Shown here one piece after another: positions 23,767 through 41,137 of a DNA stretch of 64,000 nt. The position numbers were made by a program, and so were the translations under genes. Source of the DNA: an uncultured Bacilli bacterium (lineage in GTDB: Bacteria > Bacillota_I > Bacilli_A > RF39 > UBA660); assembly GCA_947631035.1 (NCBI GenBank), contig CANRJW010000001.1, positions 5,254 through 69,253 on the forward strand, written 5' to 3'. Within the stretch, counting starts at the first letter, position 1, and the number at the start of each line of letters is the position of its first letter. Under the pieces are notes generated by a model. The model saw nothing but the letters and a program-made list of their open reading frames with translations, did no database searches and was not told the DNA's origin.

Positions 23767-23797
23767 AAAAAGCGTTCAGTTAATTGAACGTTTTTTA
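23765..23797. terminator. Bidirectional rho-independent terminator between rpsD (+) and the convergent membrane-protein gene (-)
   Basis: cgttcag-ttaat-tgaacg hairpin flanked by an A-run upstream and a T-run downstream. Confidence 0.6.
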
Positions 23798-24415: not shown

Positions 24416-24449
24416 TGAAAAAGTTATGACCTAAACATAACTTTTTTTA
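24416..24449. terminator. Rho-independent terminator immediately after essC (aagttatg-acctaaa-cataactt plus T-run; an A-run precedes it, so bidirectional)
   Basis: Read directly. Confidence 0.5.
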
Positions 24450-24451: not shown

Positions 24452-27400
24452 CTAAACATTTGTGTCTTTTGCTTCAAAGTCAGTAAGTAATTTCACTTTA
24501 TAGAGTTTGGCATTATTAATGACATAACCATAATCATTTGGTAATTCTTCTCGATCATCTCTTGTAATTTTAGAAATTTTAAATAACGTTTGATCAGCAA
24601 TTCCACTACCAATCCATATTCCTTTGGTTAAATCAGCACCAACTTTAAACCATTCTTCATAAGTAAATGGTTTAATAACATCTGGATTATCAACAATAAC
24701 AAAAGATACTAAACCGATTTGGGCATCTTTTTTGATACACTCTCCAAACCTTTTTTTAATTTCCTCACTCAATTTATTCATAAAAGCATAGAATCCGTAA
24801 ATAAAGCAATACATTTTCTTTTGATTTTGAATGGATTCTAACTCCATATGATTTTGTTCATAAATGGTATAAACTTGGTCAATATAATCAAGGATTTTGG
24901 TAAGATTTTCTTCGATATTTTTAGTAATCAAATTCGTTGTTAAATTTTCATTTGTTAAGGCATGCTCCGAAGCATTAAAGAAATAAAGATTAGCGTACTT
25001 TTCATAACAAATTTGATTTATAAAAGCATTCAGAACTGCATCGACATTTTCTATGTCATAAGATGCAATAAAGTGAACAGCATTTTTAGAGAAGTTATAT
25101 TTTTCAATAGCAAGTGTATCTTTATTAACACCAACTGCAATAGAAAAATCATGAGTTAAAGCACTTTCAATGCTTGCAAAATTAACTGTCTCTGGTAATA
25201 CTGGAATTTTTTTCGCGCGATATTGAGAAGCTTTATTAAATTTTGTACAAATTTCTCTTATATATTCACTAGTATTTTCTTCTTTAATACTTGCTGTTTG
25301 AAATTCATAAATCTTATCTCTTTTGAATAGTCCTCTTCCTTTTATTTTAGCAGGTATCTTACCATGAACATTACCAAGAATACTTGAATAATCATAGTCG
25401 TTGTTTTGTTGTAGAGCATAAATCAAATTAAAGTTTTGCTTTAAACGCATACGAACACTGCTATCGCTCGTTGCTGTAAGAACAAAACAGATTCCATAAC
25501 GAGTAGCTTCTCTTGTAATTGTTGTTAACTCTTCATTCAAATCTTCAAAGTTTTCCAGAAAAGCTTCATAATTGTTCATTACAACGACAATATTTGGAAG
25601 AATCTTACCACTAGAACGTAAATAACTAATATAATTTCCACCAAAACTAGCAAATAATTTCTTACGAGATTGTAATTCTTCTTGAATCATTTTAAATAGA
25701 TTCATTATTTTATCCGTATCACTTAAGTATGCAATATCTCCAACATGTGGACAAGCTTCAAAATTTCGTAATGTCTCTGAACCAAAATCTAATAAATAGA
25801 AATTTAATTCTGCTACGGAATAAGTTGTCATTCCCGAGTAAATAAAGCTTTCCAAAAATTCTTCTTTACCACTATCAGCAATACCATAGATTAAAGCATT
25901 CCCATCTTCAAATAAAGGCATGGTAAGTAAATATTGATTTTGGCTATCTGGGTCATCATATTCTCCAATAATAGGATTTAATATATAATTTTGACGTTTA
26001 AAGTTATATTTGCTTTTTAAATTATCGATATAAATTTTGGCTGGTATTTTTTCTAACCATAATTTTTTAATTTGAATTTTTTCCGTTCTAGCAAGATCGC
26101 TTAAATATTTTACAATGTTAGAAAGTTCCTCACCATTGGCATTCACCACAATTTCTTTTTTGCTGTCTTTACTCATAGTGGTAATGCCAATATTATTAAT
26201 CATACTAACCGAAGTATCCACATCTTTTTTAAACATTTGACTTGGTATATATCTAGCTCCAGCCCAAGCTGATTGTCCTAAAGTAAAGACCTCGTCATAG
26301 CCCACTTGCAAATAAAATCTTCCGGTTTTCTTTAAATAAGCCGCATCGGGTTTTTTTAGGACTTCTTGAGAGTCTCCTGTATCTTGGACTTTTAAGCAAA
26401 TACGAAAACGGGTATTTGACCAAATTTGTTGGTCGACCACACCACCCGGTTTTTGCGTAGCTAGTATTAAATGGACTCCTAAACTACGACCCACACGGGC
26501 AACAGAAATTAATTTATCCATAAATTCCGGTTGTTGTTCTTTTAATTCAGCAAACTCATCACTAATAATGAAGAGATGGGCAATTTGTTCTTTTCCTGGT
26601 AAACGTCCTTCACGCCACAACTTTTGGTATTTATAAATATCAATTGTACTTTCATTGGTCATAACTCTTGCTTCATTAAATTCTCTTTGACGTCTTTTAA
26701 TTTCACTTTCGATAGAAGCAAGAGAACGCGTTAATTCACTTCCATCTAAATTGGTCATAATTCCCGCCAAATGGGGAAGTGTATAAGAATCATTTTGAAA
26801 AGCTAGAGCAAGTCCTCCACCTTTATAGTCAATTAAAATCACTTGCACTTCGTAAGGGCTATAATTCACTGCTAAAGAAAGCACATAAGTAATAATAAAT
26901 TCTGATTTTCCACTACCAGTAGTTCCGGCAATTAAACCATGAGGTCCATGATATTTTTCATGTAAATCCAAACTAATGACTTCTCCACCTTTACCTATTC
27001 CCACAGGAGTTTGTAAAGAAAGCATTGGATTACTTTTTTTCCATCGTTCTAATGAATTTAATTGTTCAACTTTCCCCACTTGATACATTTCTAAGAAATG
27101 ATAGACATCCGGTAGACTACTTTCTGTTTCACTTTTTATCTCGACTTTAATATTAGCAAGTTCTTTACTGCAATTATAAAGTTCGTCTAGAGAAGATAAA
27201 TCCATTTTAAAACTTTGGGCTTGTTCATTTAAAACACTTTTAAAAATAGCACATTCGTCTTGATTTACATGAATAAAGTTTTTACATTCATTAGGACAAG
27301 CAGAAACCCTGTCAACAAGCATAATAATACTAAATCCGTAGTTTTCAGAACTACCTAAAATATTTTTAATTAAATCATAATTATCAATAGATTTAATCGC

Positions 27401-29050
27401 ATCTGTAACAAGAACATAATGAGGAACATGTCTTTCTTTTTCCTTACTTTCACGTCTTTCATGGTAAATTTTATCTAATTGATAAATCATTTCTCTATAT
27501 TCGTCATTGGTAGAACCAAAAAAACGAAAAGTATGATCATTTGACCAACTATGAGGTAAGGTTTTTACATACTCCCATAAGGATTCATTTTCTGAAGAAG
27601 TAAAGGTAACAATTTTTACTTCATCATAACTATAATTACTCATGATTTGTAATAAAATTCGGTCAGCTAATTCTTTTGTTAAAGACGGACTTCCGACAAT
27701 TCCCGTTGCTTTATTCTCATAAAAAGAATACGTAATAGGAACATCTCTTAAAATTCGTTTCGTCTCCCCTAGTTCATGCACTAAATCAAGTAAATTATCT
27801 TCCGTTAGAGAAAAATGTTCTTCAGGGTATTGTACTTCAATCTCCATGGGAATATTGCCAAGTCCTACAGGAAGGTCTAAAAAATCTTCGTCGCCGATTC
27901 TTCTTTGCCACAAACGCACGTTATGAGCTCTTATAATATCAAGACATTCTGAAACACTTAAATTATTGGAAACCAATGAACTTTTTTGTTTATTCATTTC
28001 TATTTCAATTTCTTTTTCTTTTTTGTCTAAGTATTTTTTATAAAGTTTTTGACGTTTCTTCTCCCATCTTTTATCGGAAAATTTTTGATAAACTTTCGTA
28101 AGTGTTGGCCAAAGTAGAGAACTGGCAAGCATAACAATACACATAGCAATAGAGGTTGCAGAGTCACTTACTGTTCTTTCTCCTTTGTTAATGGCACTCA
28201 TTGTACTCATAAGCATCACAACGCTCATCATGGACATCGTAAGCATCGGTCCAACAGTTAAAATTGCTGGCGTTTGATTTTCCTCTTTTTTAGAAGGTGG
28301 TGCATCAATTTTTAAAACAAATTTATTGGTTCTTTCATAAAATCTCGGGGTACGATAAAAATAATCTTCGCCATAATAATCTTCGGTTAATTCTTCATAC
28401 TCTTCATTAAAATTAGAAATTTCTCCGGTACAAGTTGCATATAAAGCGGAAGGAGCCACAAGTCCACCCGGATTGTTTACCAAGAAATAATCAGCACCCT
28501 CCTTGCGCATTAAAATGAGTTTTAACCCAAAAACAAAAATAATATCCCCATACTCAATTTTTTTAATATGACGAACACGCTTTTGATTGACATAAACAAA
28601 ACTATTTTCATCAACTAATTTTAACATATAAGATTTCTCTTGTTTTTCAATAGTAAATAGGGTATTACTTAGACCTGCTAATTGATAATTAATTTTATTG
28701 TTATCCCCATTTCCCACTGAAACACTAGTATCTTTTAACATATTAAATTCTCTAAAAGATTCATCATAGAGTGGTGCACAATAAAGAAAATATTTTTCTT
28801 GTTTATAATTGTTTTTAATAGAAAAGAATTTCCATTCTTCCAATTTTACATAGGGAACCATTACTTCTTGATTATCGATAATAAAGGCTTCACGATTACT
28901 ATAGAGTATCCATCCTTCTTCTGTTGCATCAATATTCATTAAATTGATTTTACGGCCATTTTCAAAGTCACTAATCCAATAACTTCCTCTTCTGTTTTTG
29001 GGAAGTGTAAACACAATCAATTTGTTTTCTTTTATAAGAGTTATTTGCAT
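24452..29050 (-). CDS. essC: Type VII secretion system (T7SSb) FtsK/SpoIIIE-family ATPase EssC/YukB-like
   Basis: 1532 aa; N-terminal FHA-like region, two TM helices (~aa 255-310), three P-loop ATPase modules (GLIAGTTGSGKSEF.., LIYGIADSGKEEF.., third degenerate); the block TPVGIGKGGEVISLDLHEKYHGPHGLIAGTTGSGKSEFIITYVLSLAV is near-identical to YukB/EssC. Confidence 0.9.
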   Translation of the reverse strand: MQITLIKENKLIVFTLPKNRRGSYWISDFENGRKINLMNIDATEEGWILYSNREAFIIDNQEVMVPYVKLEEWKFFSIKNNYKQEKYFLYCAPLYDESFREFNMLKDTSVSVGNGDNNKINYQLAGLSNTLFTIEKQEKSYMLKLVDENSFVYVNQKRVRHIKKIEYGDIIFVFGLKLILMRKEGADYFLVNNPGGLVAPSALYATCTGEISNFNEEYEELTEDYYGEDYFYRTPRFYERTNKFVLKIDAPPSKKEENQTPAILTVGPMLTMSMMSVVMLMSTMSAINKGERTVSDSATSIAMCIVMLASSLLWPTLTKVYQKFSDKRWEKKRQKLYKKYLDKKEKEIEIEMNKQKSSLVSNNLSVSECLDIIRAHNVRLWQRRIGDEDFLDLPVGLGNIPMEIEVQYPEEHFSLTEDNLLDLVHELGETKRILRDVPITYSFYENKATGIVGSPSLTKELADRILLQIMSNYSYDEVKIVTFTSSENESLWEYVKTLPHSWSNDHTFRFFGSTNDEYREMIYQLDKIYHERRESKEKERHVPHYVLVTDAIKSIDNYDLIKNILGSSENYGFSIIMLVDRVSACPNECKNFIHVNQDECAIFKSVLNEQAQSFKMDLSSLDELYNCSKELANIKVEIKSETESSLPDVYHFLEMYQVGKVEQLNSLERWKKSNPMLSLQTPVGIGKGGEVISLDLHEKYHGPHGLIAGTTGSGKSEFIITYVLSLAVNYSPYEVQVILIDYKGGGLALAFQNDSYTLPHLAGIMTNLDGSELTRSLASIESEIKRRQREFNEARVMTNESTIDIYKYQKLWREGRLPGKEQIAHLFIISDEFAELKEQQPEFMDKLISVARVGRSLGVHLILATQKPGGVVDQQIWSNTRFRICLKVQDTGDSQEVLKKPDAAYLKKTGRFYLQVGYDEVFTLGQSAWAGARYIPSQMFKKDVDTSVSMINNIGITTMSKDSKKEIVVNANGEELSNIVKYLSDLARTEKIQIKKLWLEKIPAKIYIDNLKSKYNFKRQNYILNPIIGEYDDPDSQNQYLLTMPLFEDGNALIYGIADSGKEEFLESFIYSGMTTYSVAELNFYLLDFGSETLRNFEACPHVGDIAYLSDTDKIMNLFKMIQEELQSRKKLFASFGGNYISYLRSSGKILPNIVVVMNNYEAFLENFEDLNEELTTITREATRYGICFVLTATSDSSVRMRLKQNFNLIYALQQNNDYDYSSILGNVHGKIPAKIKGRGLFKRDKIYEFQTASIKEENTSEYIREICTKFNKASQYRAKKIPVLPETVNFASIESALTHDFSIAVGVNKDTLAIEKYNFSKNAVHFIASYDIENVDAVLNAFINQICYEKYANLYFFNASEHALTNENLTTNLITKNIEENLTKILDYIDQVYTIYEQNHMELESIQNQKKMYCFIYGFYAFMNKLSEEIKKRFGECIKKDAQIGLVSFVIVDNPDVIKPFTYEEWFKVGADLTKGIWIGSGIADQTLFKISKITRDDREELPNDYGYVINNAKLYKVKLLTDFEAKDTNV

Positions 29051-29064
29051 ATTACTACCCCTTT

Positions 29065-29319
29065 TTAATATAAAATTAATTTTGAGCCATTTCTAATCTT
29101 ACTTTCTTTTACATATTCTTCTTCACTTATTTTTTCTCCAGTTTCTTGGTCATATAAGGAAGAAGAATGAGTATCAATAAAAATATGGTCACTTTCTTCC
29201 TCAATAATTTGGGCAATTAAATTTTTAATTGTTCCAACTTTTTTCGTTGTTGGAATATAAAGGTCAAAACTTTTTTCTAACATAGGAACTGTGACAACAA
29301 CGTATAATTTACTATTCAT
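29065..29319 (-). CDS. esaB: YukD/EsaB-like ubiquitin-fold T7SS protein
   Basis: 84 aa; YVVVTVPM..KSFDLYIP..KKVGTIKNLIAQ...RNGSKLILY parallels YukD (IDITIDLK..FDLRL..VKKVIDIA...NGDRLEIL); 15 nt upstream of essC. Confidence 0.6.
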   Translation of the reverse strand: MNSKLYVVVTVPMLEKSFDLYIPTTKKVGTIKNLIAQIIEEESDHIFIDTHSSSLYDQETGEKISEEEYVKESKIRNGSKLILY

Positions 29320-29555
29320 TATGCCCTCCTAAAAAAACAAAGGAGCAAGACAACAACAAGTATGAAGACAAGCACACCGATTCCACAAAAAACAGCAAAA
29401 CGAATATTCTTTTTTTTGTTTTCTACTGTTGGTTCTATCTCTACTGTTTTATCAATTCCTGGAACATAAGAATGAGCAAGACTTAGTTTTGCTTTACAAT
29501 TGATACAAATTTGGTCCCCAGGATGGGTCTCATAACCACATTTTTCACACTTCAT
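29319..29555 (-). CDS. Small zinc-ribbon (CxxC...CxxC) single-pass membrane protein, T7SS-associated
   Basis: MKCEKCGYETHPGDQICINCKA plus C-terminal TM FAVFCGIGVLVFILVVVLLLCFF; stop overlaps the esaB start. Confidence 0.4.
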   Translation of the reverse strand: MKCEKCGYETHPGDQICINCKAKLSLAHSYVPGIDKTVEIEPTVENKKKNIRFAVFCGIGVLVFILVVVLLLCFFRRA

Positions 29556-29894
29556 GTTATCACCCTTTATTATGTATTTATTGTATCATAAGGGAAAAAG
29601 AAAGAAAAGAAAAACCAAATGAATTCACTTGATTTTTCCTATTTTTCTAAAAGAAAATTTATTCTATTTTATTTACTTCATTTAGAAACTCCATCACTTT
29701 TTAAATATTCTATAAATAGTTCACTTAAAGTAGTTTTATCACATCTTCTAATACCCATTGACCACTTTAATTAAAACCTTATATATTCATGTATTTCTAT
29801 ATAAATATTCCTCCATAAAAATTATAGAATATTTTATTTTTACAAAAATGAATTTGTAAATTTTTGGGCTCTTAAAACTAACCTTTTTTACAAC

Positions 29895-30620
29895 TTAAAC
29901 ATATGAATCAAGTAATTTTTTTAAATCATTTTTCATTTCAGTAATTGTTGAATATCTTATTCCTTCTTTTGAAGATGTTGCCTTTAAAATAATAAAATTG
30001 GCAAACCAAGGCGCATTAGAACTCTTAAAAGAATATTCCTTTTTTAATTGTAATAATTTATTTGTATCAACATCTCCAAAATTTAATTCAGAATATAACT
30101 CATATAACATAACTCCTAAAGCATATATATCAAAATAAACAGAAACTTTATTCAATTTCAACTGCTCTAAAGAACAATATTTTTTAGTACCATATGAAAC
30201 ATACTCACCAATTTTTCGAGTATTAGCATAATCTATTAAATACAATTTTCCATCATTGCGAATCATAATGTTACTAGGATTTAAATCACAATGTACAAAA
30301 CCATCTTTATGCAAAAATTCTAAAATTTTTGCAACCGAATATAGAATTTCAATATTTTTTTTTAAAGAAATACTATTTTTAATTTTATTATAAGATAACC
30401 CATTTATATATTGATAAACAATATATTTTTTATCAATATCATATTTATATATTTTAGGTAAAAAAGAATATTTTTTTATAATAGAATATACTTTAATTTC
30501 ATTTTTCAATTGTGAAATATCCTTTTCTTTTTTTAAAACCTTTATAAAATAATCGTGATTCGTTTCATTTATATGATAAAAAATACCATTTTGATTTTCT
30601 AATTTTTTTAAAATTTCCAC
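29895..30620 (-). CDS. Minimal protein-kinase-like protein (Ser/Thr-kinase fold without a canonical glycine loop); GTG start
   Basis: HCDLNPSNIM (HRDLKPxN catalytic loop), DYA (DFG-like), GTKKYCSLEQ (APE-like), DIYALGVMLYEL (DxWSxG). Confidence 0.55.
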   Translation of the reverse strand: MEILKKLENQNGIFYHINETNHDYFIKVLKKEKDISQLKNEIKVYSIIKKYSFLPKIYKYDIDKKYIVYQYINGLSYNKIKNSISLKKNIEILYSVAKILEFLHKDGFVHCDLNPSNIMIRNDGKLYLIDYANTRKIGEYVSYGTKKYCSLEQLKLNKVSVYFDIYALGVMLYELYSELNFGDVDTNKLLQLKKEYSFKSSNAPWFANFIILKATSSKEGIRYSTITEMKNDLKKLLDSYV

Positions 30621-30625
30621 TTAAC

Positions 30626-30892
30626 TTACCTTTCAATTAAAATTCTATCTTGAGGAGTAGTTGCAACAAACATTTCTGGAGAGATAAGTTCTTTATAAAA
30701 ACTTTCTATTTCATCTTGTTTTACATCTAAGAATTCAAGCATACCTATAACTGTATTTCTTGGAATCTTAAAAAAACAACCTTCAACACTTAATAATTCT
30801 AATAATAAATTCATTTTTTCTTGTTCCTCTTTTGTGTTAATTTTCTTTTTCTTTTCTTCAATTAAATAATCTAATTTTTCTAAAATATTCAT
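30626..30892 (-). CDS. 88-aa acidic protein translationally coupled (ATGA) to the end of the giant toxin gene; candidate immunity or accessory protein
   Basis: Position and overlap only; no motif. Confidence 0.35.
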   Translation of the reverse strand: MNILEKLDYLIEEKKKKINTKEEQEKMNLLLELLSVEGCFFKIPRNTVIGMLEFLDVKQDEIESFYKELISPEMFVATTPQDRILIER

Positions 30893-30894
30893 TT

Positions 30895-33800
30895 TTATCC
30901 TCCTATAACACCAATGCTCTGAATATAATTTTCATAATCCACATGATTATCAAACATTTTTTTGCCATTTTTTTGGTCATATACTATATAATCCGTACCA
31001 TTATCTTTAGATACTGTAATAATACAAAGTGGTATTGTTTTATCATCAGCTTTGATATATTCCGTTGCAGTGCTCACCTTTATATTATCTTGTTTATTAA
31101 ATAAAATATATTTCAAATTGCTAAAATAAACTCGAGCTTCAAATCCATCCATATATTCTGGAATTGGGGTATTTTCAAAATCTTTAATTAAATCAACAGT
31201 ATCAGTATTCTCCGTACTAGGTTTAAATACATTGTTGGCCTTTTCTAAAAGTTTATCAAAATATTCATTTTCTTTAACGCCAATTTTTTTATCCACATTT
31301 GCCCATGTTGTTCCATATTGTGCTAATACAGAATTATCCAAATTTACTAATCTTTTATGTGATAATTTATTCATATATCCATATACAAAACCAGCTGTAG
31401 CAAAACCACATTTGCAATTAACTAAATCATTTGATTTATTGATAGCATCGGTTGCATCAGCAACAATAACGCGATTTTCATCTACTTTAACTTCAACCCA
31501 TTTATGGGAACCCACACTATCACCACCAATAATGGATACATTTTTTTCTTCTATTCCACTAGCAATTAATAACTCGGCATATAACTGACTCCATCCTTTA
31601 CAAATGACATTATTGCTCTCTAAATTTTGAAAGTTAAGATTTTTATTATAAATAGTTGCCTTAATACCTAAATTTTCTTCATTATCATCCATAAAAGTTG
31701 TATCATAATGTACCCGTTTATTCAATTCATAATAAATTTTACGGGATTTTTCTAATATGGACCATTTTGAATCAATTAGTGACAATATTTCGTATTTTAT
31801 GTAATTTAAATTTTCTGTTGTAGTTGAATTGGTTGGATTTGAAATATCCCATTTTTCTGATAATTCTGCGCCTTCTATTTTATGTGCAACCTTATCATAC
31901 CAATCTCTAGCAACAATTTTTGATATTTTTTTCTCTTTTATAAAGTTGGCTAAATAAGAATTATCCCTGAAGTTTTCATAAGTATCATACTCGTATTTAG
32001 AAACTTTTTTATATTTTAGTTTACCTTCCTGTTGAACTAAAACAAAATATTCTTTTGAAGTAAATGCATTTTTTAAATTCCAATCCCCCTCATATATAAT
32101 AGCACTATCGTCTAGATTTCGAACCTTTAATTTTGAACTAGTAATAGTTTCTAAACCAGGATTTACTTTAAGAGCTGTAATTTTCACAGGTAAATCATTT
32201 AAATTTGTAGCCACTGCTCCTACTTCTGGAATACCAGCAAAAAATATTTTTTTACCAAAATTCATTACAGAATTACTATTTTTCAATAATTGACTCGACA
32301 TAATTTTATCAATATCTTTTTCACTAGAAAAATAATATAATCCTTCTTTTAAAATTTTATCATTCAAACCTTTAAAATAATTCGTGTCAGTATATATAAA
32401 TCTATGCATAGTCGAAATTAATTTATTGGACATTGCATTTAATACATTATGGCTTTGATAATTTGTTAATAACACATTCAAGTCAGGTAATTTCTTTTCA
32501 TTATTTAATGGTACTGTTACTTCTTCAGTAATATTTTCATCCGTATTTAAATTTTCTTCATTTGAAATAGTTATTGAATCTACTCGGATATCACTTTTAT
32601 CTTCTTTTAATTCTTCAGCATTATTTTCTTCTAATATGTCTGTAGCTTCATCAGCCTCTAGCACTTCTATTACATTATCATCCAATTTTTTGCTACTGCT
32701 AATAGAATTTTCTGCTATTTTGACATCAGGTCCTAAAGATTCAAAAGTTTTCTTTAACATATCACTGAACTCATCACCGAATATTTCTTTAAGAGTGGTT
32801 AAATATTTCTTATCTGTTAAAATTAAACTCGTATAAGTTGCAAACATCTCATGAAAAGAAATTAAATCACTTCCAATAGGATGATTTTCATAATATTCAG
32901 CACTATGACCATATCGAAGACGATATTTTTCATTTTGATTAAATGAAATCTCCGGATTTTTATAAACACTACAAATAATACTAGATAAATCTATTAAATC
33001 AGGGTATTTTTTAGACATATTCTCATAGGTTAGTTTTGTTATCTTATCGGATACCTCATAAGTAGCAACTTGCTCGCGTAATTCGGCACCACTTATATCT
33101 TTCAAATGTTCTTTTAAAGAAGGATGACGTTCAAATAAATTTTCTTTAATTTGCGTAAAATTTGTTTTATTGTAATTTTGTAATTCTTTAGTAACTACTT
33201 CATCTAATGTTGATACATTATATTGTTTCATGACACTTTTTTGGGCATCATTTAAACATTCATTGCGAGATTTTTCAATTTGTTCTTGTAATGAAATAAT
33301 TTTTTCTGAATTGACATTTTTTATAGCGCGTCCGATTATATTTTGATAATCGTCAGGTAATTTTTCATTTAATACTTTTTCAAAGAAGGCATGTCCCATT
33401 TCATGAAATAAAGCCCTAGAATTTTTCTTATCCGCATTAAGATAAACATTTCCGTTGTTTTCATAACTTCCTTCATTTGTTTCATAAAAATGAATTTGAT
33501 CTTTCATATTTAAAAGTAATTCTCTTATTGCTGTTGCTTCTGTATTGCCTTTTTTGGCAGAATCTAAAAGATAATCACTTACAAGTTTGACAAGTTTTGG
33601 ATCACTTTTTCCATCCTGAGTAAGCGTTTTTATAAAATGGCTTTCTTTCGATTCAAATATTGACTTTATCTTATTTTTGATTTTATCATCAATTTTTAAA
33701 TCCAGTATTGTATTCCCTTTTGAATTTGTTCTAATATTATATTTACTAGTATCCACTTTAGATAATTTTAAAATATTTTCTATAACAGAATAATCTATTT

Positions 33801-36800
33801 TTTTATCCGTTGTTTCAAACGTCATTTCATACATTTTAACGTTTCTTTGTCTTTGTTCTATTCCAAGAGCAAATCGTGCTACTGCCAAATTCGTTTCCTT
33901 TGTGGAAGGTGTTTTTGTTAAATTTTTAATAAAGCCTAATTTTTGCATTTGTCTTAATAACATAAAAGTATTTGCTTGACTTGTTGTTCCATATTTATGA
34001 TTTTTTTCTAATTGTTGGAAAGCATTTAAAGAACGAACCAAAAAATATTCTTGGGGATTATCTGAAAATCTAGATTTTATAAAATCATTATAAGAAAATA
34101 CATTTTGATTTAATTTTATAATTTGTTCCGTTTTACCATCAGCAGTCTGCATTTTAGAATCAGCAGTCATTAAAATACTATCTTTTATATTATTATTATA
34201 AAAACCATCATTCATTAAACTGATACTTTTTAAGGCAAGTGGTACACTTAAAACAGCCCCAATTGGACCAGAAGAAACTAAACTCGTGAAAGCAACAAGA
34301 CCTGCAGTTCCCCCTATCAGTTTTGCTCCTCGAACTGTAGCATTTTTAACTTGCTTAATTTTTAAAGGTTTAGAATCGTTTACTAACTCTAAAGTATTTT
34401 TATTTTCAAATAATGAATTTAAATAACTATCTTTTATCGATTGAACATTTTTTTTGTTATTAACATATTCTTCTATTTTCTTTCCTTCTTCGGTATTTTT
34501 ATAATGATCATATACATCTTTAGAAACTGATTCGTAGACTAACTCATCTTGTTTTTGTTTTAATACAAAATATTCTTTTGAAGCTTCCTGATTTGTCAAG
34601 TCAAATTTTCCATCATAACTAATGGCATGATCATCTAGATTTCGTATTTTTAACTTTGAACTTTCAATAATATCCGTTGTAGGCATAACTTTAACAGCCG
34701 TTGCTGTTAATGGCAAGTAATCCAAATTGGTTGCAAAAGCACCTACCTCTGGAACTCCTGAAAAGAAGAAAGTTTTTGGATTTCCATAAGAGGCATTAAT
34801 ACCGCTTGGCTTAATATAACCACTTTGCAGAATTTGATCTGCTGCACTTGTAAAATGATACAATCCATTCTTTTCTATTCCTTCATTTACACCAACAAAA
34901 TTATTTGTATTTTTGTATACATATTTTTTTAAATTTGACTCTAAAGTAAGTCGTATGGATTGTGGTAATGAAAAATTATTATATTTTAATCCATTTATTT
35001 TATCTTGAGTTTGAACTTTAGGCGTTTCCAATTTTTGTTTGTTCATTTGGGTATTTACTTCACTTATGACTAAATTTGGTGAATTTAAAATTCCACCTGT
35101 AATAGCTCCATAAATAGCACTCTTTTTGGCATTTTCAGTTACTTCTTGTAAATCAATATCTTCCTTAAAAATTCCATATCGTGTTAAGGCATCTACATAT
35201 TCTTGGGTTCCTTCTTCCACCCCTTCTTTTAACATGGATTGAGCAAACGTTTTTAATCCTGTTACATTAACATCACTTAATCCTGGTATTGCTCCTAAAA
35301 ATCTTTCCATTGTAGTTTCTGATACCCCTGATACCACTCCATATAAAACAGAATTTTTTAAATCCTTGCCTTCTACCATAGCACTATGGTAACTGCTACC
35401 TCCAGCACTAATTCCCATACTCACACTACCTACTGCTGGAGTACAAAGAATTCCTAAGGCCATACTTGGTATCATATTACCAATACTTTGTGATATTTCA
35501 TAATTATTATCAAGTATTTTATTGTACTTTTCCGTATTTTGTAAAGCTTCTAGGATATACATAGATTCATATTCATCTTCACTATAAATGCGCGAATCAC
35601 TTGCTAAATTATTTTCAATTCCTAAAAGGGAAGATGCATATGCCCCTACTCCTTTTATAGCATTTGCAAATCCGCCAAAAAAAGATTCTGTTCCATCTCC
35701 TAAACCTTTTCCTGCTACTTTTGCATGGTTTTCTAAAAAACTTGATAATTTCTTGGTAATTTCTTCGTTTGCTTTTTCATCTTCTAAACCATTTAAAAAT
35801 TTTTGGGCTTTTAAATATCCATTCATTTGATTGACATTATTTTTAGTAGCCAATAAATATTCTTCTGCTGCTTCTTCTCCTCTTTTTTCCCATAAATAAT
35901 TATACATTTTTGCTAATTCTGGATTGCTTTTGGAAGCTTTTAATAAACTTTCTAATTCTCCTTTATGTTCGATTGTAATTTGATCACGATTCGCATATTG
36001 GTTTAACGTTCTAAATTGTTCTAATGGACTTATCTCTTTCTTACCGATATCTTTAATACTGGCTTCTTTATAGTTATAATTTTGGTAATCTTCTGTCAAT
36101 GGTAATAATTCATACAAGGAACAACTTTTTAACTCTTTTGTTTTTTCAATAGAAGCTTCTAGTGTTGCTTTATCACTTTTTAGTTCATTTAAACGCTTGC
36201 TAAATTCTTGATAATTGGCAAAATTGGTTGATGCTTTTACAGCATTTGTTAAATCGGATTCACTTTTATTAACCGTTGCATACATCTTTTTGACATCACT
36301 ATCTTTTGCTTGACACAATTTTAATAATTCGGTTGTACTTAATGTTGCTAATTCCTTTTTGGTTATTCCCAGTTCTTTTAATTTAGAATCGGTACAGCCA
36401 AAATTTTTATAATCACTTATAAGTTTATTAATGTCTGCTTCTACCAATCTTTTTTGATTTTGGGCAAGTTCATTTGCTCGAGCAAATTGTTTTTCAAACG
36501 GAAGTAATTTGTTTAATTCTTCATTTACTGTGTCTAAAAGCCCATCATATTCCTCTATTTCTTTTTGATACATTTCTTCATATTCATGAAGTAAACTTTG
36601 AAAGGCATCACTTTCTACATTTTCCATATTGTCATATTGGGTATTATAAGCACCTAAATTCATTTTAAAATTTGCAAAAACAGCATTTAAGTTGTCCATG
36701 CCAAAAGAAGTTTTTTGAATTGAATTCAAATTGGGAATTATTAACGAAGAATGCTCTATAGGAAAAATTTTTTCGTCATATAATTTTAGTTTTGATAAAG

Positions 36801-37116
36801 AATTACGATATTTTCCAACAATACCCCTTGTGCTTGAATCAAATAATCCTTTTTGTCCACTATTACTTAAATTTTCTTCTATAGCCTCTAAATCAAAAGC
36901 ATATTCTCTTAAATACTCTGCAACATTTCCAATATTCTTAGCAATAGTTATATAATTTTTATTTATTTTTCCTAAATAAGTAGATACAGGTGTCCCGCTG
37001 GAACTATACGAATTGGGTATAAAATTTTTTTGTTTATTTTGATAGTAAGTTTGATAGTTTTTCATTGTATTAATATTGGTTGTAATAGCACTAGTGCTGG
37101 CAAATAACTTATCCAT
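30895..37116 (-). CDS. Giant (~2074 aa from ATG 37116) multi-domain polymorphic-toxin candidate in the T7SSb locus: helical LXG-like N-terminal region, glycine-rich PT-TG-like segments, duplicated ~150-aa domain, HExxH zincin motif, C-terminal transglutaminase-like Cys-His-Asp domain
   Basis: Track ORF starts at TTG 37155, but ATG 37116 has an AAGGA RBS. Gly-rich segments FFGGFANAIKGVGAYASS..MGISAGGSSYHSAMVEG and LIGGTAGLVAFTSLVSSGPIGAVLSVP. Internal repeats GLYHFTSAADQIL..FFFSGVPEVGAFATNL..SSKLKIRNLDD vs GLYYFSSEKDIDKI..IFFAGIPEVGAVATNL..SSKLKVRNLDD. HEMGH encoded at 33391-33405. C-terminus CKGWSQLYAELLIASGI ... GSHKWVEVKV ... VIVADATD resembles a transglutaminase/papain-like triad. Confidence 0.6.
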   Translation of the reverse strand: MDKLFASTSAITTNINTMKNYQTYYQNKQKNFIPNSYSSSGTPVSTYLGKINKNYITIAKNIGNVAEYLREYAFDLEAIEENLSNSGQKGLFDSSTRGIVGKYRNSLSKLKLYDEKIFPIEHSSLIIPNLNSIQKTSFGMDNLNAVFANFKMNLGAYNTQYDNMENVESDAFQSLLHEYEEMYQKEIEEYDGLLDTVNEELNKLLPFEKQFARANELAQNQKRLVEADINKLISDYKNFGCTDSKLKELGITKKELATLSTTELLKLCQAKDSDVKKMYATVNKSESDLTNAVKASTNFANYQEFSKRLNELKSDKATLEASIEKTKELKSCSLYELLPLTEDYQNYNYKEASIKDIGKKEISPLEQFRTLNQYANRDQITIEHKGELESLLKASKSNPELAKMYNYLWEKRGEEAAEEYLLATKNNVNQMNGYLKAQKFLNGLEDEKANEEITKKLSSFLENHAKVAGKGLGDGTESFFGGFANAIKGVGAYASSLLGIENNLASDSRIYSEDEYESMYILEALQNTEKYNKILDNNYEISQSIGNMIPSMALGILCTPAVGSVSMGISAGGSSYHSAMVEGKDLKNSVLYGVVSGVSETTMERFLGAIPGLSDVNVTGLKTFAQSMLKEGVEEGTQEYVDALTRYGIFKEDIDLQEVTENAKKSAIYGAITGGILNSPNLVISEVNTQMNKQKLETPKVQTQDKINGLKYNNFSLPQSIRLTLESNLKKYVYKNTNNFVGVNEGIEKNGLYHFTSAADQILQSGYIKPSGINASYGNPKTFFFSGVPEVGAFATNLDYLPLTATAVKVMPTTDIIESSKLKIRNLDDHAISYDGKFDLTNQEASKEYFVLKQKQDELVYESVSKDVYDHYKNTEEGKKIEEYVNNKKNVQSIKDSYLNSLFENKNTLELVNDSKPLKIKQVKNATVRGAKLIGGTAGLVAFTSLVSSGPIGAVLSVPLALKSISLMNDGFYNNNIKDSILMTADSKMQTADGKTEQIIKLNQNVFSYNDFIKSRFSDNPQEYFLVRSLNAFQQLEKNHKYGTTSQANTFMLLRQMQKLGFIKNLTKTPSTKETNLAVARFALGIEQRQRNVKMYEMTFETTDKKIDYSVIENILKLSKVDTSKYNIRTNSKGNTILDLKIDDKIKNKIKSIFESKESHFIKTLTQDGKSDPKLVKLVSDYLLDSAKKGNTEATAIRELLLNMKDQIHFYETNEGSYENNGNVYLNADKKNSRALFHEMGHAFFEKVLNEKLPDDYQNIIGRAIKNVNSEKIISLQEQIEKSRNECLNDAQKSVMKQYNVSTLDEVVTKELQNYNKTNFTQIKENLFERHPSLKEHLKDISGAELREQVATYEVSDKITKLTYENMSKKYPDLIDLSSIICSVYKNPEISFNQNEKYRLRYGHSAEYYENHPIGSDLISFHEMFATYTSLILTDKKYLTTLKEIFGDEFSDMLKKTFESLGPDVKIAENSISSSKKLDDNVIEVLEADEATDILEENNAEELKEDKSDIRVDSITISNEENLNTDENITEEVTVPLNNEKKLPDLNVLLTNYQSHNVLNAMSNKLISTMHRFIYTDTNYFKGLNDKILKEGLYYFSSEKDIDKIMSSQLLKNSNSVMNFGKKIFFAGIPEVGAVATNLNDLPVKITALKVNPGLETITSSKLKVRNLDDSAIIYEGDWNLKNAFTSKEYFVLVQQEGKLKYKKVSKYEYDTYENFRDNSYLANFIKEKKISKIVARDWYDKVAHKIEGAELSEKWDISNPTNSTTTENLNYIKYEILSLIDSKWSILEKSRKIYYELNKRVHYDTTFMDDNEENLGIKATIYNKNLNFQNLESNNVICKGWSQLYAELLIASGIEEKNVSIIGGDSVGSHKWVEVKVDENRVIVADATDAINKSNDLVNCKCGFATAGFVYGYMNKLSHKRLVNLDNSVLAQYGTTWANVDKKIGVKENEYFDKLLEKANNVFKPSTENTDTVDLIKDFENTPIPEYMDGFEARVYFSNLKYILFNKQDNIKVSTATEYIKADDKTIPLCIITVSKDNGTDYIVYDQKNGKKMFDNHVDYENYIQSIGVIGG

Positions 37117-37226
37117 ATTAATACATCCTTTCTTCTTAGAGGCATAGAAAAACAACCCTACTTTATTATTACTTAAATCTTATCATATTTTCAGGTTGTC
37201 TTCAATCATTTTAAATTCTTTATCTA

Positions 37227-37234
37227 TTTTGTTT
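37227..37234. repeat. 8-bp target-site duplication TTTTGTTT, left copy, of the IS66-family insertion
   Basis: Identical octamer abuts both ends of the element (second copy at 39026-39033). Confidence 0.8.
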
Positions 37235-39025
37235 GTTACAATTCACAGCTGAAATAAAAAGAAACTAGAAAAAAGAAAGAAATTCTAGTTTTTTAAATGT
37301 TAAAAGAATAGTTAATAAGTAGGTAAAATTTGTTCATAACTATAAGCATTATTTCTAGGTTAAACGGGCAATAAATGGTATAATTATCTTATAAAGTTGG
37401 TGGCAATAATGGCAGTAGAAACAAGTTTAAGTAAATTACAAAAGCAAGTAGATAAATTAGAAAAAGATAATTTAAAATTAAGAGATTTATTGGCAGAAAG
37501 AAAAGCAAAACAAGAACAAGCAGAAAAATCATTAAAATATTATAAAGAGAATATAGAAAAAATAGTAACAGATGCAGTGGAAAAAGCAACCACAGAACTA
37601 ATGAAAGAATTAAATAAAATAAAAGAAGAAAATGAACATTTAAAAAGGATATTAAACCATGATAGTAGTAATACAGGAATACCAACAAGTAAAACGAAAA
37701 TAGGAGAAGAAAAAAGAATACCGAATTCAAGAGAAAAAAGTAATAAATCAAAAGGTGGACAAACAGGACATAAAAAAACGAAGTTAGAAAAATTTAAAGA
37801 TAATGAAATAACAGATACCTATACATATGAAATAGCAAAACCAATCTGTAATGAATGTGGAGGTAAATTAAACTTAATAGGAAAAAGAAGCAAAGATGAT
37901 TTTGATATAGAAATAAGATTAGTAAAAAGAAGAAATGAATTTTGTATATATGAATGTAGTTGTTGTCATAAAGAAATAAAAGTACCAATACCAGATAAAT
38001 TAAAGGAAGAAAATCAATATGGAAGTAATGCTCAAGCACTAGCCATATCACTAGTAAATGAAGGATATGTATCCTTTAAAAGAACCAGAGAGTTAATAAG
38101 TGGCTTTACAGGTGGAGAAATGAATATGAGCGAAGGATACATAGTCAAATTACAAAAGAGATGTTATGAAAAATTAAAAGAATTTGACAATAGTCTTCAC
38201 CAAGAGATATTAAAACAATCCTTATTAAACTGGGATGATACAACAATAAGTATCAACGGAAAGCAATCATGCTTAAGATTTTATGGAAATGAAAATCTAA
38301 GATATTACAAAGCTCATGCAAAGAAAGATAAAGATGGAATAGATGAAGATGGAATACTTAAATATCTAAGTAAAGATACTATGGTAGTACATGATCACAA
38401 TAAAGTAAATTATAATGAAGATTATGACTTTACGAATGCAGAATGTTGTGTACATTTAATACGTGATTTAAGAGAACTAAATGATTGTCTTTCTAGAGAA
38501 TGGATAGAAAATCTCATAAAGTTATTAGTAGATACAAATGACAAAAGAAAAGAATATATAGATAAAAGTATTCTTCAATTTGATAGTGAAGTATCAGATA
38601 AAGTAATAGAAGATTATGACAAAATCATAGAACAAGCCAAAAAAATCAATTTAAAAGATTTCAATCAATATTATGGAAAAGAAGAAAGAACAATGATAAA
38701 GAGGCTTGAAGATTATAAAGAGAATTATCTATTATGGGTACTAAGATTTGATATACCATTTTCAAATAATCTAAGTGAACGAGCATTAAGAGGGAGCAAG
38801 ACAAAAATGAAAGTATCAGGACAGTTTGCAAATATACAAAATGCTGAATACTTCGCAAGAATAAAATCTTATATGGAAACTTGCAAATGTCATAATATTA
38901 ATCCTCACACTGCCTTAGTTCGACTTATAGAAGATAATCCTTATACTTTAGAAGAATTAAAAATAAACTAAGTTTTTGCTTAGTCTATTTTATGTTATTT
39001 TCTTTTCGGGGCTGTGAATAGTAAC
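37235..39025 (+). mobile_element. Intact single-ORF IS66-family insertion sequence (1791 bp) with imperfect terminal inverted repeats and a perfect 8-bp TSD
   Basis: IRL GTTACAATTCACAGCTGAAATAAAAAGAAA vs reverse complement of the right end GTTACTATTCACAGCCCCGAAAAGAAAATAA; flanked by TTTTGTTT on both sides; encodes an IS66-type transposase. Confidence 0.8.
37397..38971 (+). CDS. IS66-family transposase
   Basis: 524 aa; N-terminal leucine zipper/coiled coil; GGQTGHKKTK (IS66 GQPGHKG-like); C-x2-C...C-x2-C zinc-ribbon; WDDTTISINGK DDE region; C-terminal NNLSERALRGSKTKMKVSGQF..ETCKCHNINP matches the IS66 NNxAERALR tail. Confidence 0.85.
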   Translation: MVAIMAVETSLSKLQKQVDKLEKDNLKLRDLLAERKAKQEQAEKSLKYYKENIEKIVTDAVEKATTELMKELNKIKEENEHLKRILNHDSSNTGIPTSKTKIGEEKRIPNSREKSNKSKGGQTGHKKTKLEKFKDNEITDTYTYEIAKPICNECGGKLNLIGKRSKDDFDIEIRLVKRRNEFCIYECSCCHKEIKVPIPDKLKEENQYGSNAQALAISLVNEGYVSFKRTRELISGFTGGEMNMSEGYIVKLQKRCYEKLKEFDNSLHQEILKQSLLNWDDTTISINGKQSCLRFYGNENLRYYKAHAKKDKDGIDEDGILKYLSKDTMVVHDHNKVNYNEDYDFTNAECCVHLIRDLRELNDCLSREWIENLIKLLVDTNDKRKEYIDKSILQFDSEVSDKVIEDYDKIIEQAKKINLKDFNQYYGKEERTMIKRLEDYKENYLLWVLRFDIPFSNNLSERALRGSKTKMKVSGQFANIQNAEYFARIKSYMETCKCHNINPHTALVRLIEDNPYTLEELKIN

Positions 39026-39261
39026 TTTTGTTTTGCTTCTAAACAAGAGCCTTCACAATTTTCATTGTAGCACTTTGTTTCAAAAATTTTTATTTTCTTT
39101 TCTAGTGCTTCTTCAAGAATTTGGCAACGCACTTCATAACTCATAGAAGTCCAATCAAAAGGATATAAATCAGAATCATATTCTCCGACTTTTTCTTCTT
39201 TGTCAAACATTTTTGCATAAGCGGTTTGCATAAAATAGCATAACATTTTATTCTCATTCAT
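38995..39261 (-). CDS. Small Cys-rich protein (88 aa) whose last 9 codons are supplied by the IS66 right end; the ancestral ORF ended ...EAKQNR*
   Basis: Codon-by-codon reading across the IS junction at 39025/39026; seven Cys residues; no family assigned. Confidence 0.4.
   Translation of the reverse strand: MNENKMLCYFMQTAYAKMFDKEEKVGEYDSDLYPFDWTSMSYEVRCQILEEALEKKIKIFETKCYNENCEGSCLEAKQKLLFTAPKRK
39026..39033. repeat. 8-bp target-site duplication TTTTGTTT, right copy
   Basis: See 37227-37234. Confidence 0.8.
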
Positions 39262-39317
39262 ATTTTTCCAACTTTCCTATAAACCTATTTTTACTCTAGC
39301 ATATTTTTAAAGTATCT

Positions 39318-39812
39318 TCAATTGCTTAATAAACTATCAACCGTTTTTTCTAGAGTTTCGATATTACGATTTTTCGTAGCAACTAAATTATTTTTCGTAT
39401 TAATTTGATTCACTACCCCTTGGTCAAGCACCGTTCTTTCGTCTTCAAAGTGATTTCCATATTCATCGGTATAAGAATAAGTTTCTGTTCTATATTTATG
39501 GCGTTCTAAGCCTGAAATCTCTGTTTTTAAGTTTTTTACTTCTCTTTCCAAAGCCTGAATTTTTATAATATTCTCACAAGCGGTTTTTAAAGTAGTTAAA
39601 TTTTTTTTCAAAGTCGCTACGGAGCCAATTTTAGCACTGGCCATAATTTCACTCGTTTTTACTTGAATCACATTGGTAATGGAAGAATGTAAAACACCGG
39701 GATTTATTAAATTTTCCTTTATGGGATCAAGATTATAATTGGATAATTCACTTAAAGAAGATTCAATCATATTTTTTAAAGATTCTGCTGCAACATTCGA
39801 ATATTTACTCAT
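39318..39812 (-). CDS. Helical/coiled-coil small protein (164 aa), T7SS toxin-associated accessory candidate (Lap/DUF-type)
   Basis: Heptad-rich sequence; position in the pre-toxin gene array. Confidence 0.35.
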   Translation of the reverse strand: MSKYSNVAAESLKNMIESSLSELSNYNLDPIKENLINPGVLHSSITNVIQVKTSEIMASAKIGSVATLKKNLTTLKTACENIIKIQALEREVKNLKTEISGLERHKYRTETYSYTDEYGNHFEDERTVLDQGVVNQINTKNNLVATKNRNIETLEKTVDSLLSN

Positions 39813-39821
39813 AATAATCCT

Positions 39822-40109
39822 CTAAAATTTCATATAACTGCTAATTCCTTGTTCTGTTCTACGATAATTTTCAACTACCGTATCTAAATAGATTTTGATA
39901 TTATAAAATTTAGAATTAACACTTTCCATATTGGATAAAATTTCTTTAACTTGATTATAAAAATAATTCCTCGTTTGTGAATTCCAATTTGCAGAGTTAT
40001 AAATCACTTTATAAGAATCTTCTAATGCATCCATTGTGGTATTTATTTTTTTAAATATTGTATCTAAAATAACGGCATAATTTTCTAATTCATTATAATC
40101 GCAATACAT
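39822..40109 (-). CDS. WXG100-like small helical protein (95 aa)
   Basis: Two predicted helices around the NSANWNSQTRNYF turn; size and context. Confidence 0.4.
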   Translation of the reverse strand: MYCDYNELENYAVILDTIFKKINTTMDALEDSYKVIYNSANWNSQTRNYFYNQVKEILSNMESVNSKFYNIKIYLDTVVENYRRTEQGISSYMKF

Positions 40110-40121
40110 ATTGAATCCCTT

Positions 40122-40424
40122 CTATTCTATATTGACTTCTTTACTAGCATATTGAGTATCTAATGTTTCCTCTGCTTCTACATATCCTTTAACAAATTCA
40201 TTAAAAGAAGTGATTTGGTTTTGAAACATATCCAATTCTTTGATAAAACTATTCATTTTAGAAAAAAAATTAGTGTATTCGTCTTCTTTCCAGATGTCCC
40301 CTATTTCTAATATTGTTTTTTCAATATCTTTTGTATTACTTTCTAAATCTTTAATATAACTATCACATTTATTGGTTTCGCTGTGAAGTGTTTCTATATT
40401 AGCTAGAATTACCATATATTTCAC
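40122..40424 (-). CDS. WXG100-like small helical protein (100 aa)
   Basis: Helix-turn-helix hairpin around IGDIWKEDEYTNFF; size and context. Confidence 0.4.
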   Translation of the reverse strand: MKYMVILANIETLHSETNKCDSYIKDLESNTKDIEKTILEIGDIWKEDEYTNFFSKMNSFIKELDMFQNQITSFNEFVKGYVEAEETLDTQYASKEVNIE

Positions 40425-40492
40425 CCTTTTTTATAAATAAGCTTTTAAAATTTTAAAAGCTTATTTATAAAAACCACTTAAGTGGTTTTTAT

Positions 40493-41137
40493 CTATGCCA
40501 TATCAGCATTTTGGGCATTTTGAGCAGCTTGAGAAATGTTCTTTATACAGATATCTAAACTTTCTAATACACTATCCATATTTGTAGTTAATGTAGTCGT
40601 TAATTCTTCATGGGCACTTCCTGCGGCATCCCCATCCCATAAACCTGAGCCATCATTTAAGCGAGCAATTTCATTTTTTAAACTTTCATATACATCACTT
40701 AATTCTTGTTTAATCGTATTTAAACTCGTACCAATTTCTGAAATCGTGATATAGTCATAAACGACTGCTTCTTGAGCAATGGTACTTGGCGTAATATCTG
40801 AAATGTTTGAATAACTCAAATTCATTGAACTTCCAACATTTGTAGATGTTCCTAAGTTACTAACTTCCAAATTTGCTACATTCTTATTAACAGAATTCAT
40901 TGCTTCTTGAAAAGAAGAACCAAACGCATTAATAAATTTAATCAAAGCTTTATGGGTATCCGTAAAATCTTGATAATTTTGTGCTGCTGCTGCTCCTGTC
41001 CATACATTAGGCTCTGCTAATTTGTCCATTTGTTCCTTAAATTTAGTAGAACAATTTGCTACATTTTCATCTAAATATCTTGCAACTCTATTAGACCATG
41101 TATTAATTTCTATTGGGTCATATCGAAATATTGCCAT
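40493..41137 (-). CDS. Tandem (fused) WXG100/ESAT-6-like protein; first gene of the T7SS operon
   Basis: Two helical-hairpin halves, each with a W-x-G turn followed by an aromatic: VWTGAAAAQNYQDF (aa ~45) and LWDGDAAGSAHEEL (aa ~165); GGAAGG RBS. Confidence 0.55.
   Translation of the reverse strand: MAIFRYDPIEINTWSNRVARYLDENVANCSTKFKEQMDKLAEPNVWTGAAAAQNYQDFTDTHKALIKFINAFGSSFQEAMNSVNKNVANLEVSNLGTSTNVGSSMNLSYSNISDITPSTIAQEAVVYDYITISEIGTSLNTIKQELSDVYESLKNEIARLNDGSGLWDGDAAGSAHEELTTTLTTNMDSVLESLDICIKNISQAAQNAQNADMA

Follow-up and report, generated by a model that had tools for sequence, protein, structure and literature searches.

A pared-down type VII secretion locus, probably of the T7SSe lineage, and its adjacent candidate toxin/immunity module in an uncultured Bacilli bacterium

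Closest described systems and the lineage of the locus

Ten type VII secretion system (T7SS) arrangements, a to j, have been described in a survey built from RefSeq, and the non-b variants T7SSc to T7SSj have component sets without EsaA, EssA and EssB (Garrett, Higginson & Palmer 2024, PMC11217815). A DUF6382-FHA protein, a PP2C phosphatase and a membrane kinase define T7SSe, for which Neobacillus was named as a host in the same survey. The T7SS locus analyzed here is found at positions 24452 to 41137 of a 64,000-nt window (the whole stretch of DNA that was analyzed) from an uncultured Bacilli bacterium (RF39; UBA660; GCA_947631035.1, CANRJW010000001.1 positions 5,254 to 69,253), with its type VII genes on the minus strand. 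Its component list matches none of the ten described arrangements; uncultured gut lineages were not covered by the survey, likely because it was built from RefSeq. The locus is probably a pared-down T7SS of the T7SSe lineage, rather than a T7SSb, with an adjacent polymorphic toxin/immunity module.

Both elements that mark a T7SS of any type, an EccC/EssC-family ATPase and a WXG100 protein, were found at the locus. The ATPase, EssC (TsxC; 1532 aa, positions 24452 to 29050, minus strand), is a membrane-bound FtsK/SpoIIIE protein with a degenerate N-terminal FHA region. It passed the NCBIfam equivalog model TIGR03928 (1030 bits against a cut-off of 778), matched PF01580 with an E value of 9.6e-44 and had B. 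subtilis YukB as its best solved relative (9qks, E value 3e-125). All genes that a preliminary description of this DNA had listed were recovered at their places by open reading frame (ORF) and family scans, and among the other ORFs of the window, which are unrelated and mostly housekeeping genes, Pfam detected no T7SS-related gene.

Relatives were collected by scanning a genome collection with EssC, and the best 80 of the 579 genome hits were taken as loci (numbered with the prefix L) with up to 10 kb on each side. Uncultured gut 'Bacilli' metagenome-assembled genomes (MAGs) from rabbit, Hadza, rumen and mouse samples, some of them labelled Candidatus Coprovivens or Erysipelotrichaceae, contain a very large family of this EssC. 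Nothing relevant on a T7SS in RF39, Erysipelotrichales or Coprovivens was found in the literature. Over its full length, EssC of the window was 38 to 39% identical to EssC of T7SSe-type loci from Neobacillus, Bacillus, Cohnella and clostridial MAGs, in which a DUF6382+FHA protein is encoded together with a PP2C phosphatase and a membrane Ser/Thr kinase; the T7SSe-type reference L040, for example, has DUF6382+FHA, PP2C and Pkinase genes. The identity to four T7SSb EssC proteins was 25 to 28%. In a neighbour-joining tree, which was built without support values or bootstraps and did not include T7SSf, T7SSi and T7SSj references, the T7SSb references were the outgroup, the T7SSe-type loci formed one clade, and beside it the window belonged to another, larger one with about 59 loci from uncultured gut 'Bacilli'. 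The preliminary description had called the locus T7SSb-like, a label that neither the identities nor the tree bear out. Because EssC groups with the T7SSe-type lineage and the non-b variants are described without EsaA, EssA and EssB, the lack of these three proteins probably follows from ancestry and not from loss out of a T7SSb machine.

The locus resembles T7SSe in its nearest EssC relatives among those recovered, in the N-terminal FHA region of EssC, in a separate YukD-like protein (TsxB) and in toxin genes flanked by WXG100-like partner genes. Two WXG100 units are also shared, encoded by separate genes in T7SSe and some of the relatives and fused in the window; a small zinc-ribbon protein with one transmembrane helix has the two elements of TseK in the reverse order. 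Unlike T7SSe, the window has no match to the kinase TseD, the phosphatase TseF or TseJ, its EssC has lost the FHA phosphothreonine motifs, and yukD is upstream instead of downstream of essC. With T7SSb (Ess of S. aureus and Yuk of B. subtilis), the locus shares an EssC that passes the EssC equivalog model, YukD and WXG100 proteins, an FHA domain without phosphothreonine-binding residues and, in related loci, DUF4176 and large polymorphic toxins. In contrast to T7SSb, neither the window nor the 80 related loci yielded an EssB/YukC, EsaA/YueB or EssA/YueC, the EssC identity is low (25 to 28%) with the T7SSb references as outgroup of the tree, and the WXG100 protein is a fused tandem, whereas EsxA of T7SSb forms homodimers. 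The T7SSg variant, described as 'relatively simple' (PMC11217815), has a similarly short list of two WXG100 proteins, a YukD-like protein and an ATPase; its ATPase without FHA, its DUF5050 beta-propeller protein and its adjacent Tad pilus genes, however, were not seen here.

The conserved core and the components not found

All three FHA motifs have been lost from EssC of the window, which has GN, SNTL and SF where GR, SxxH and NG are expected. In the second FHA domain of the T7SSe-type loci, GR and SxxH were each present in 19 of 20 loci and NG in 20 of 20, versus 2, 14 and 3, respectively, of the 59 loci of the pared-down clade and 0 of 6 for each motif in the window's own clade. This split agrees with the published association of phosphothreonine motifs with the presence of a kinase component (Table S1 of PMC11217815) and shows that the phosphothreonine-binding residues of EssC were lost along with the kinase/phosphatase/FHA module. 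The Walker A motif (GTTGSGKS) of EssC is intact. Compared with the closest relative, L091, whose EssC is 91% identical, the ratio of nonsynonymous to synonymous substitution rates (dN/dS) was 0.06 for essC and 0.09 for yukD, which is 87% identical at the protein level. Judged from these sequence features, both genes look functional.

The putative YukD/EsaB/TsxB ubiquitin-like protein (84 aa, positions 29065 to 29319, minus strand) matched PF08817 with an E value of 4.7e-5, just under the gathering score. Its homologues adjoin EssC in 56 of the 61 related loci, and the homology detected by BLAST extends to the T7SSe-type TseB.

The WXG100 component of the window is a single tandem (fused) protein of 214 aa (positions 40493 to 41137, minus strand), with WxG motifs at W46 and W167. 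It matched TIGR03930 in two stretches (48.6 bits against a cut-off of 44.85) and the Pfam WXG100 family at residues 131 to 212. A single-sequence AlphaFold2 model, of low confidence (predicted local distance difference test, pLDDT, of 52), showed four long helices in two hairpins with a disordered linker at residues 93 to 116. Homologous fusions were found in L002, L003, L030 and L091. The tandem protein is likely the core EsxA/TsxA equivalent and an intramolecular mimic of the EsxA dimer, and it may have arisen by fusion of a TseA1/A2 pair. When its halves were compared by BLAST with the separate WXG100 gene pairs of related loci, nothing convincing was obtained, and nothing relevant on fused or tandem WXG100 proteins was found in the literature. 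Proteins of about 200 to 240 aa that adjoin EssC in six other loci (L005, L045, L048, L060, L067 and L078) contain one WxG and a second motif, 'NWT(A/E)G' or 'IWQSGG' (W-T/Q-x-G), and resemble a further family of tandem WXG100 fusions.

Next to yukD, a zinc-ribbon protein with one transmembrane helix (78 aa, positions 29319 to 29555, minus strand) is a candidate clade-specific T7SS component with a TseK-like architecture. The stop codon of its gene overlaps the yukD start codon, and the gene is directly upstream of yukD in seven of the eight loci of the nearest clade (the window, L091, L092, L003, L004, L005 and L078). The motif CxxCG..PGDQxCxxC is invariant among the homologues, and the dN/dS of about 0.3 indicates purifying selection. 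A homologue search with this protein gave four close clusters only. TseK of T7SSe has one transmembrane helix and matches zinc-ribbon proteins (Supplementary Data 3, PMC11217815). In six T7SSe-type loci of clostridial MAGs (L037, L039, L051, L055, L070 and L079), proteins of 82 to 107 aa, which have a transmembrane helix at the N terminus and a CxxC..CPxCGT zinc ribbon at the C terminus and are usually encoded after the DUF6382-FHA gene, are probably TseK. An hhalign comparison of the 78-aa protein with these TseK-like proteins gave a probability of 89.6% over the 22-residue ribbon only, a match too generic to prove homology. The immediate clade of the window has, in addition to the core, this zinc-ribbon membrane anchor built like TseK. 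The zinc ribbon and transmembrane helix at the N terminus of S. aureus TcaA (NF053815) were also matched by the 78-aa protein, but weakly and far below the cut-off (E value 7e-6). In five of the six clostridial MAG loci, a single-pass membrane protein of about 740 to 810 aa follows the WXG pair (in L079 one gene further on); L039 has none.

Four T7SSb loci with annotated genes (Listeria, Bacillus mycoides, Limosilactobacillus and Enterococcus; gene order esxA-esaA-essA-esaB-essB-essC) served to build hidden Markov models (HMMs) of EsaA, EssA and EssB. Run over six frames, these HMMs matched only the four reference loci themselves and neither the window nor the 80 related loci. The best other matches were spurious (E values of 0.0077, to a 95-aa WXG-like ORF, and 0.037), and the EssB HMM gave nothing below an E value of 1. 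The earlier statement that these three proteins are not encoded in the window was thus upheld. BLAST searches with the T7SSe FHA protein, phosphatase and kinase of the Neobacillus neighbours gave matches only in the T7SSe-type clade, apart from generic kinase-domain matches to a 241-aa protein of the window and to an ORF of about 220 aa in L060. No PP2C protein (TseF) was found in the window and none matched in the pared-down loci, and neither contained a homologue of TseJ (DUF6382-FHA). By Pfam, the window has no large signal-peptide immunoglobulin-like protein of the TseI kind, TseI itself not having been used as a query, and no candidate for TseH, which was not directly searched for, appeared in the window.

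When all predicted proteins within 10 kb of EssC were clustered into families in 61 loci, the recurring families were EssC (60 loci), YukD (56), WXG100 (34) and DUF4176 (18) and no others; no membrane protein recurred. At least 5 kb was present on both sides of EssC in 33 of the 59 pared-down loci, and many related loci are an essC-yukD-wxg-wxg cassette among differing housekeeping genes. EssC (TsxC), YukD (TsxB) and WXG100 proteins are thereby shown to be the conserved core of the lineage. The reduced apparatus suggested in the preliminary description is therefore a reasonable reading as far as EssC and YukD without EsaA, EssA or EssB nearby are concerned, but not as a reduced T7SSb with three substitute proteins. 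A bare four-gene form, with essC, yukD and two short WXG100-like genes (60 to 79 aa) flanked by unrelated housekeeping genes, was seen in L014, L015, L017, L021, L022, L025, L026, L047 and L054. The locus L084, from the cultured Lachnospiraceae species Agathobacter rectalis (NZ_CP143948.1), has YukD, a separate FHA protein, EssC (with an apparently split essC), WXG100 and Imm59 annotated, with no EssB, EsaA or EssA annotated nearby.

The gene content could also be explained, as the preliminary description had itself allowed, if the apparatus is not minimal and only its ATPase module is encoded here, with the missing membrane parts (a TseI-like wall-spanning protein, an EssB-like scaffold or another) at an unlinked site. 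The organism is walled, with genes for PBP5, VanY, LytR-CpsA-Psr, an M23 peptidase and a GH25 muramidase in the window. If EsaA and EssH of T7SSb are taken as a guide, such a host would be expected to have a wall-spanning or wall-opening partner, and the search reached 64 kb of the window genome and 10 kb on each side in the relatives. However, core genes are clustered in all described T7SS types (PMC11217815), no further gene recurs across the 61 loci with their varied flanks, and the parallel loss of the FHA phosphothreonine site and the kinase module suggests a coordinated simplification rather than a scattering of genes. A dispersed apparatus is thus somewhat unlikely, though it is the strongest of the alternatives. 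A host without a cell wall was also considered as the reason for the missing EsaA and was ruled out by the peptidoglycan and wall-polymer enzyme genes of the window.

Toxin module, accessory genes and genomic setting

A large polymorphic toxin candidate is encoded at positions 30895 to 37155 (minus strand; 2086 aa from a TTG start codon or 2073 aa from the ATG at 37116). Its N-terminal part of about 900 aa is 75% identical to a 1692-aa protein of L091, whereas the C-terminal part differs; a weak transglutaminase-core match was found there at residues 1801 to 1900. The context of the gene suggests that the toxin is a T7SS substrate. A domain of about 180 aa is duplicated within the protein (residues ~712 to 890 and ~1566 to 1743); compared with the L091 stretch to which the first repeat aligns, the second shows 43% identity. 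A HEMGH metallopeptidase-like motif occurs near residue 1250. Directly after the toxin gene, an 88-aa protein (positions 30626 to 30892, minus strand) with no family match in Pfam, relaxed thresholds included, is a probable immunity protein. In L002 and L013, homologues of this protein are encoded after related toxin genes, and L003 has one too, though not immediately behind its toxin gene.

Upstream of the toxin gene are three genes for small helical proteins on the minus strand. The first protein (100 aa, positions 40122 to 40424) has weak WXG100 and ESAT6_2 matches, and its position adjoining the tandem WXG100 is conserved in L002, L003 and L091. The second (95 aa, positions 39822 to 40109) matched PF06013 (E value 8e-5) and TIGR03930 (E value 5e-6) and is 76% identical in L091. 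Both are probable Lap-type partners, the 100-aa protein being a probable targeting partner of the toxin. The third (164 aa, positions 39318 to 39812) is syntenic with the toxin module and has homologues in L003, L078 and L091; no family match was obtained with Pfam, including relaxed thresholds, or NCBIfam.

The 241-aa protein encoded 3' of the toxin module (positions 29895 to 30620, minus strand) is a soluble Hanks-type kinase-like protein (PF00069, E value 4.5e-22), whose best solved relatives are PknB and StkP (E value 2e-14). It is without a Gly-rich loop, its catalytic loop reads HCDLNPSN (Lys to Asn), and DYA replaces DFG. It is an orphan, as a database of 5.8 billion proteins yielded, apart from the protein's own cluster, a single relative (38% identity). 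The counterpart at the same position in L091 has 236 aa and is only 33% identical, with a dN/dS of 0.62, whereas in the same comparison YukD was 87%, the zinc-ribbon protein 83% and NusA and IF2 93% identical. No counterpart was found at that position in L092 (a 75% relative) and none in L002 to L005, L078 or the rest of the clade, where the L060 match is generic. Owing to its fast divergence, its patchy occurrence and its place after a toxin with a variable C-terminal part, this protein is best regarded as variable cargo and not as a part of the machine.

That the kinase-like gene is instead a decaying relic of TseD, the kinase of T7SSe, or a regulator of this system that is still active is unlikely. 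The ancestral lineage used a kinase, and the protein is 26 to 33% identical by BLAST to T7SSe-type kinases (E values of 1e-4 to 2e-12), but this similarity is generic for Hanks-type kinases, and PknB scores equally well. Furthermore, the phosphothreonine site of the EssC FHA region is gone, no PP2C or FHA partner is present, and the gene co-varies with the variable toxin module. The adjacency of the kinase and zinc-ribbon genes was rejected as an ancestral trait, because the T7SSe-type zinc-ribbon gene follows the FHA gene.

In the preliminary description, the 241-aa protein, the 78-aa zinc-ribbon protein and a 178-aa polytopic protein had been proposed to replace EssB, EssA and EsaA jointly. 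This model could draw on the pseudokinase domain of EssB, to which the degenerate features of the 241-aa protein might correspond, on the kinase-like gene at the same position in L091 and on the synteny and constraint of the zinc-ribbon gene. The 241-aa protein, however, is soluble and resembles PknB and StkP and not EssB, the EssB HMM did not match it, and it is both absent from most loci and strongly diverged where EssC is 91% identical. A structure model of this protein from a 14-sequence alignment had a mean pLDDT of 55, too poor for fold searches, as was the model of the tandem WXG100, and the choice between EssB and a kinase was made from the sequence, in favor of a Hanks-type kinase. 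The 178-aa protein (positions 23795 to 24331, minus strand), a four-helix membrane protein with no family match in Pfam (including relaxed thresholds) or NCBIfam, had identical metagenome contigs as its only source besides the window. It is absent from both L091, where essC is directly followed by rpsD, and L092, and is a strain-specific accessory gene product. Joint replacement by these three proteins is therefore very improbable. Only the zinc-ribbon protein, which is syntenic and constrained, remains as a candidate extra component, and the kinase-like and 178-aa membrane protein genes are shown to be variable accessory genes.

Relative to L091, the window carries an insertion of about 2.09 kb between the 164-aa gene and the toxin gene (positions 37206 to 39297, with blastn break points at about 37206 and 39297), which two other metagenome samples share. 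Similar promoter-like sequences of about 25 bp (AAAATATGCTA.. and AAAATATGATA..) bound the insertion, which contains an IS66-family transposase gene (positions 37397 to 38971, plus strand; PF03050, E value 7.5e-16), whose plasmid matches are annotated as IS66 family transposase, and a Cys-rich ORF of 88 aa (positions 38995 to 39261, minus strand) with no informative Pfam match at relaxed thresholds. The location of IS66 between the partner genes and the toxin gene and the many missing ancestral components might suggest a degenerating, nonfunctional remnant disrupted by the insertion sequence, but this is scarcely credible, as no ORF is broken, purifying selection on essC and yukD is strong (dN/dS 0.06 to 0.09), the element is intergenic with promoter-like sequence kept upstream of the toxin gene, and the same compact gene set occurs in about 60 species-level genomes.

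The genes had been described as a single operon that ends at one terminator. This could not be confirmed, because a strong internal hairpin was detected, the hairpin after essC is weak and the IS66 gene is on the opposite strand. The internal structure, an intrinsic-terminator-like hairpin with a U-tract found by a terminator scan (positions 29607 to 29640, minus strand; -18.1 kcal/mol, z = -3.64), is in the 340-nt gap between the kinase-like gene and the zinc-ribbon gene and is the strongest of its kind in the region; none of 200 shuffles folded as well. The AT-rich hairpin after essC (positions 24418 to 24446, minus strand; -9.7 kcal/mol, z = -1.69) was not reported by the consensus terminator scan. 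Upstream of the locus, LeuS is followed by a hairpin with a U-tract (-8.7 kcal/mol, z = -3.05). The locus probably comprises three or more transcription units, consisting of the WXG and partner genes, the toxin-immunity-kinase genes and the zinc ribbon-yukD-essC genes.

The toxin-immunity-kinase stretch (window positions 30001 to 34000) has the lowest G+C of the window, 0.25 to 0.27 versus about 0.30 to 0.34 elsewhere, which fits a mobile or fast-turnover cargo module. The locus is flanked by LeuS upstream and by rpsD and rimP-nusA-ylxR-infB downstream. Elsewhere in the window, a 582-aa protein (positions 11848 to 13596) strongly matched the ALK/LTK glycine-rich domain (PF12810, E value 8.8e-38), which is better known from animal receptor kinases. 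At positions 6173 to 7173, a sigma-70-family factor (216 aa) adjoins a STAS-domain protein (113 aa), an arrangement reminiscent of a stress or sporulation sigma factor and its anti-anti-sigma partner that hints at possible spore formation by the host.

Weight of the evidence, proposed function and meaning

Several points weigh against reading the locus as a pared-down T7SS of the T7SSe lineage with an adjacent toxin/immunity module. Its placement closest to T7SSe was drawn from the best 80 of the 579 hits and from the unsupported neighbour-joining tree that left out T7SSf, T7SSi and T7SSj. In addition, the kinase of reference L040 has a TPR tail, a feature ascribed to T7SSj (PMC11217815), and the reference clade may be a mixture of T7SSe and T7SSj. 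The YukD-like protein scored 24.5 bits, below the Pfam gathering score of 27. The 78-aa gene is missing from the contig of L002, which belongs to the closest clade, and the elements of its product are in the reverse order compared with the TseK-like proteins of the clostridial MAGs. No LXG match was obtained at the N terminus of the toxin by Pfam, even at relaxed thresholds. Both structure models, of the 241-aa protein and of the tandem WXG100, are of low confidence, and the search covered 10 kb around EssC in the relatives and the 64 kb of the window genome, so that unlinked components are possible. Even so, the pared-down T7SSe-lineage system remains the probable explanation.

How such a system might work can be proposed by analogy with the B. 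subtilis YukB/C/D structure and with work on T7SSb. In the B. subtilis core structure, the channel at the centre is formed by YukB, with YukD bound to the YukB FHA and DUF regions and to a hairpin of the first ATPase domain (bioRxiv 10.1101/2025.01.24.634720). By this analogy, EssC hexamers would form a membrane channel through their paired transmembrane helices and also act as the export motor, and binding of YukD to the FHA and DUF regions of EssC would stabilize the assembly. The fused WXG100 protein, as a ready-made EsxA 'dimer', would engage the C-terminal ATPase domain of EssC and be exported. The 100-, 95- and 164-aa helical proteins may bind the N-terminal helical region of the toxin and thereby target it for export, and the 88-aa protein would shield the producer cell.

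A bolder proposal, put forward tentatively and with a good deal less confidence than the lineage assignment, is that, throughout a large clade of walled, uncultured gut Bacilli, EssC and YukD are a self-sufficient minimal T7SS for the export of WXG100 proteins and of very large toxins, without a need for scaffold, wall-spanning or regulatory subunits. The 78-aa anchor would then be an addition in the subclade of the window, and the system would be an eleventh arrangement, descended from a T7SSe-like ancestor whose control module of kinase, phosphatase and FHA proteins was lost. Which parts of the T7SS are mechanically essential and which are lineage-specific additions is a long-standing question. 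The joint loss of the kinase module and of the FHA phosphothreonine site adds further support to the published link between the two. If the proposal is true, the 2024 RefSeq-based catalogue of variants (T7SSc to T7SSj) would be extended into uncultured gut lineages, and dozens of gut species would hold a natural minimal system, which would provide a small set for reconstitution (EssC, YukD and one fused WXG100 protein) and make it possible to ask directly if EssC is the channel by itself.

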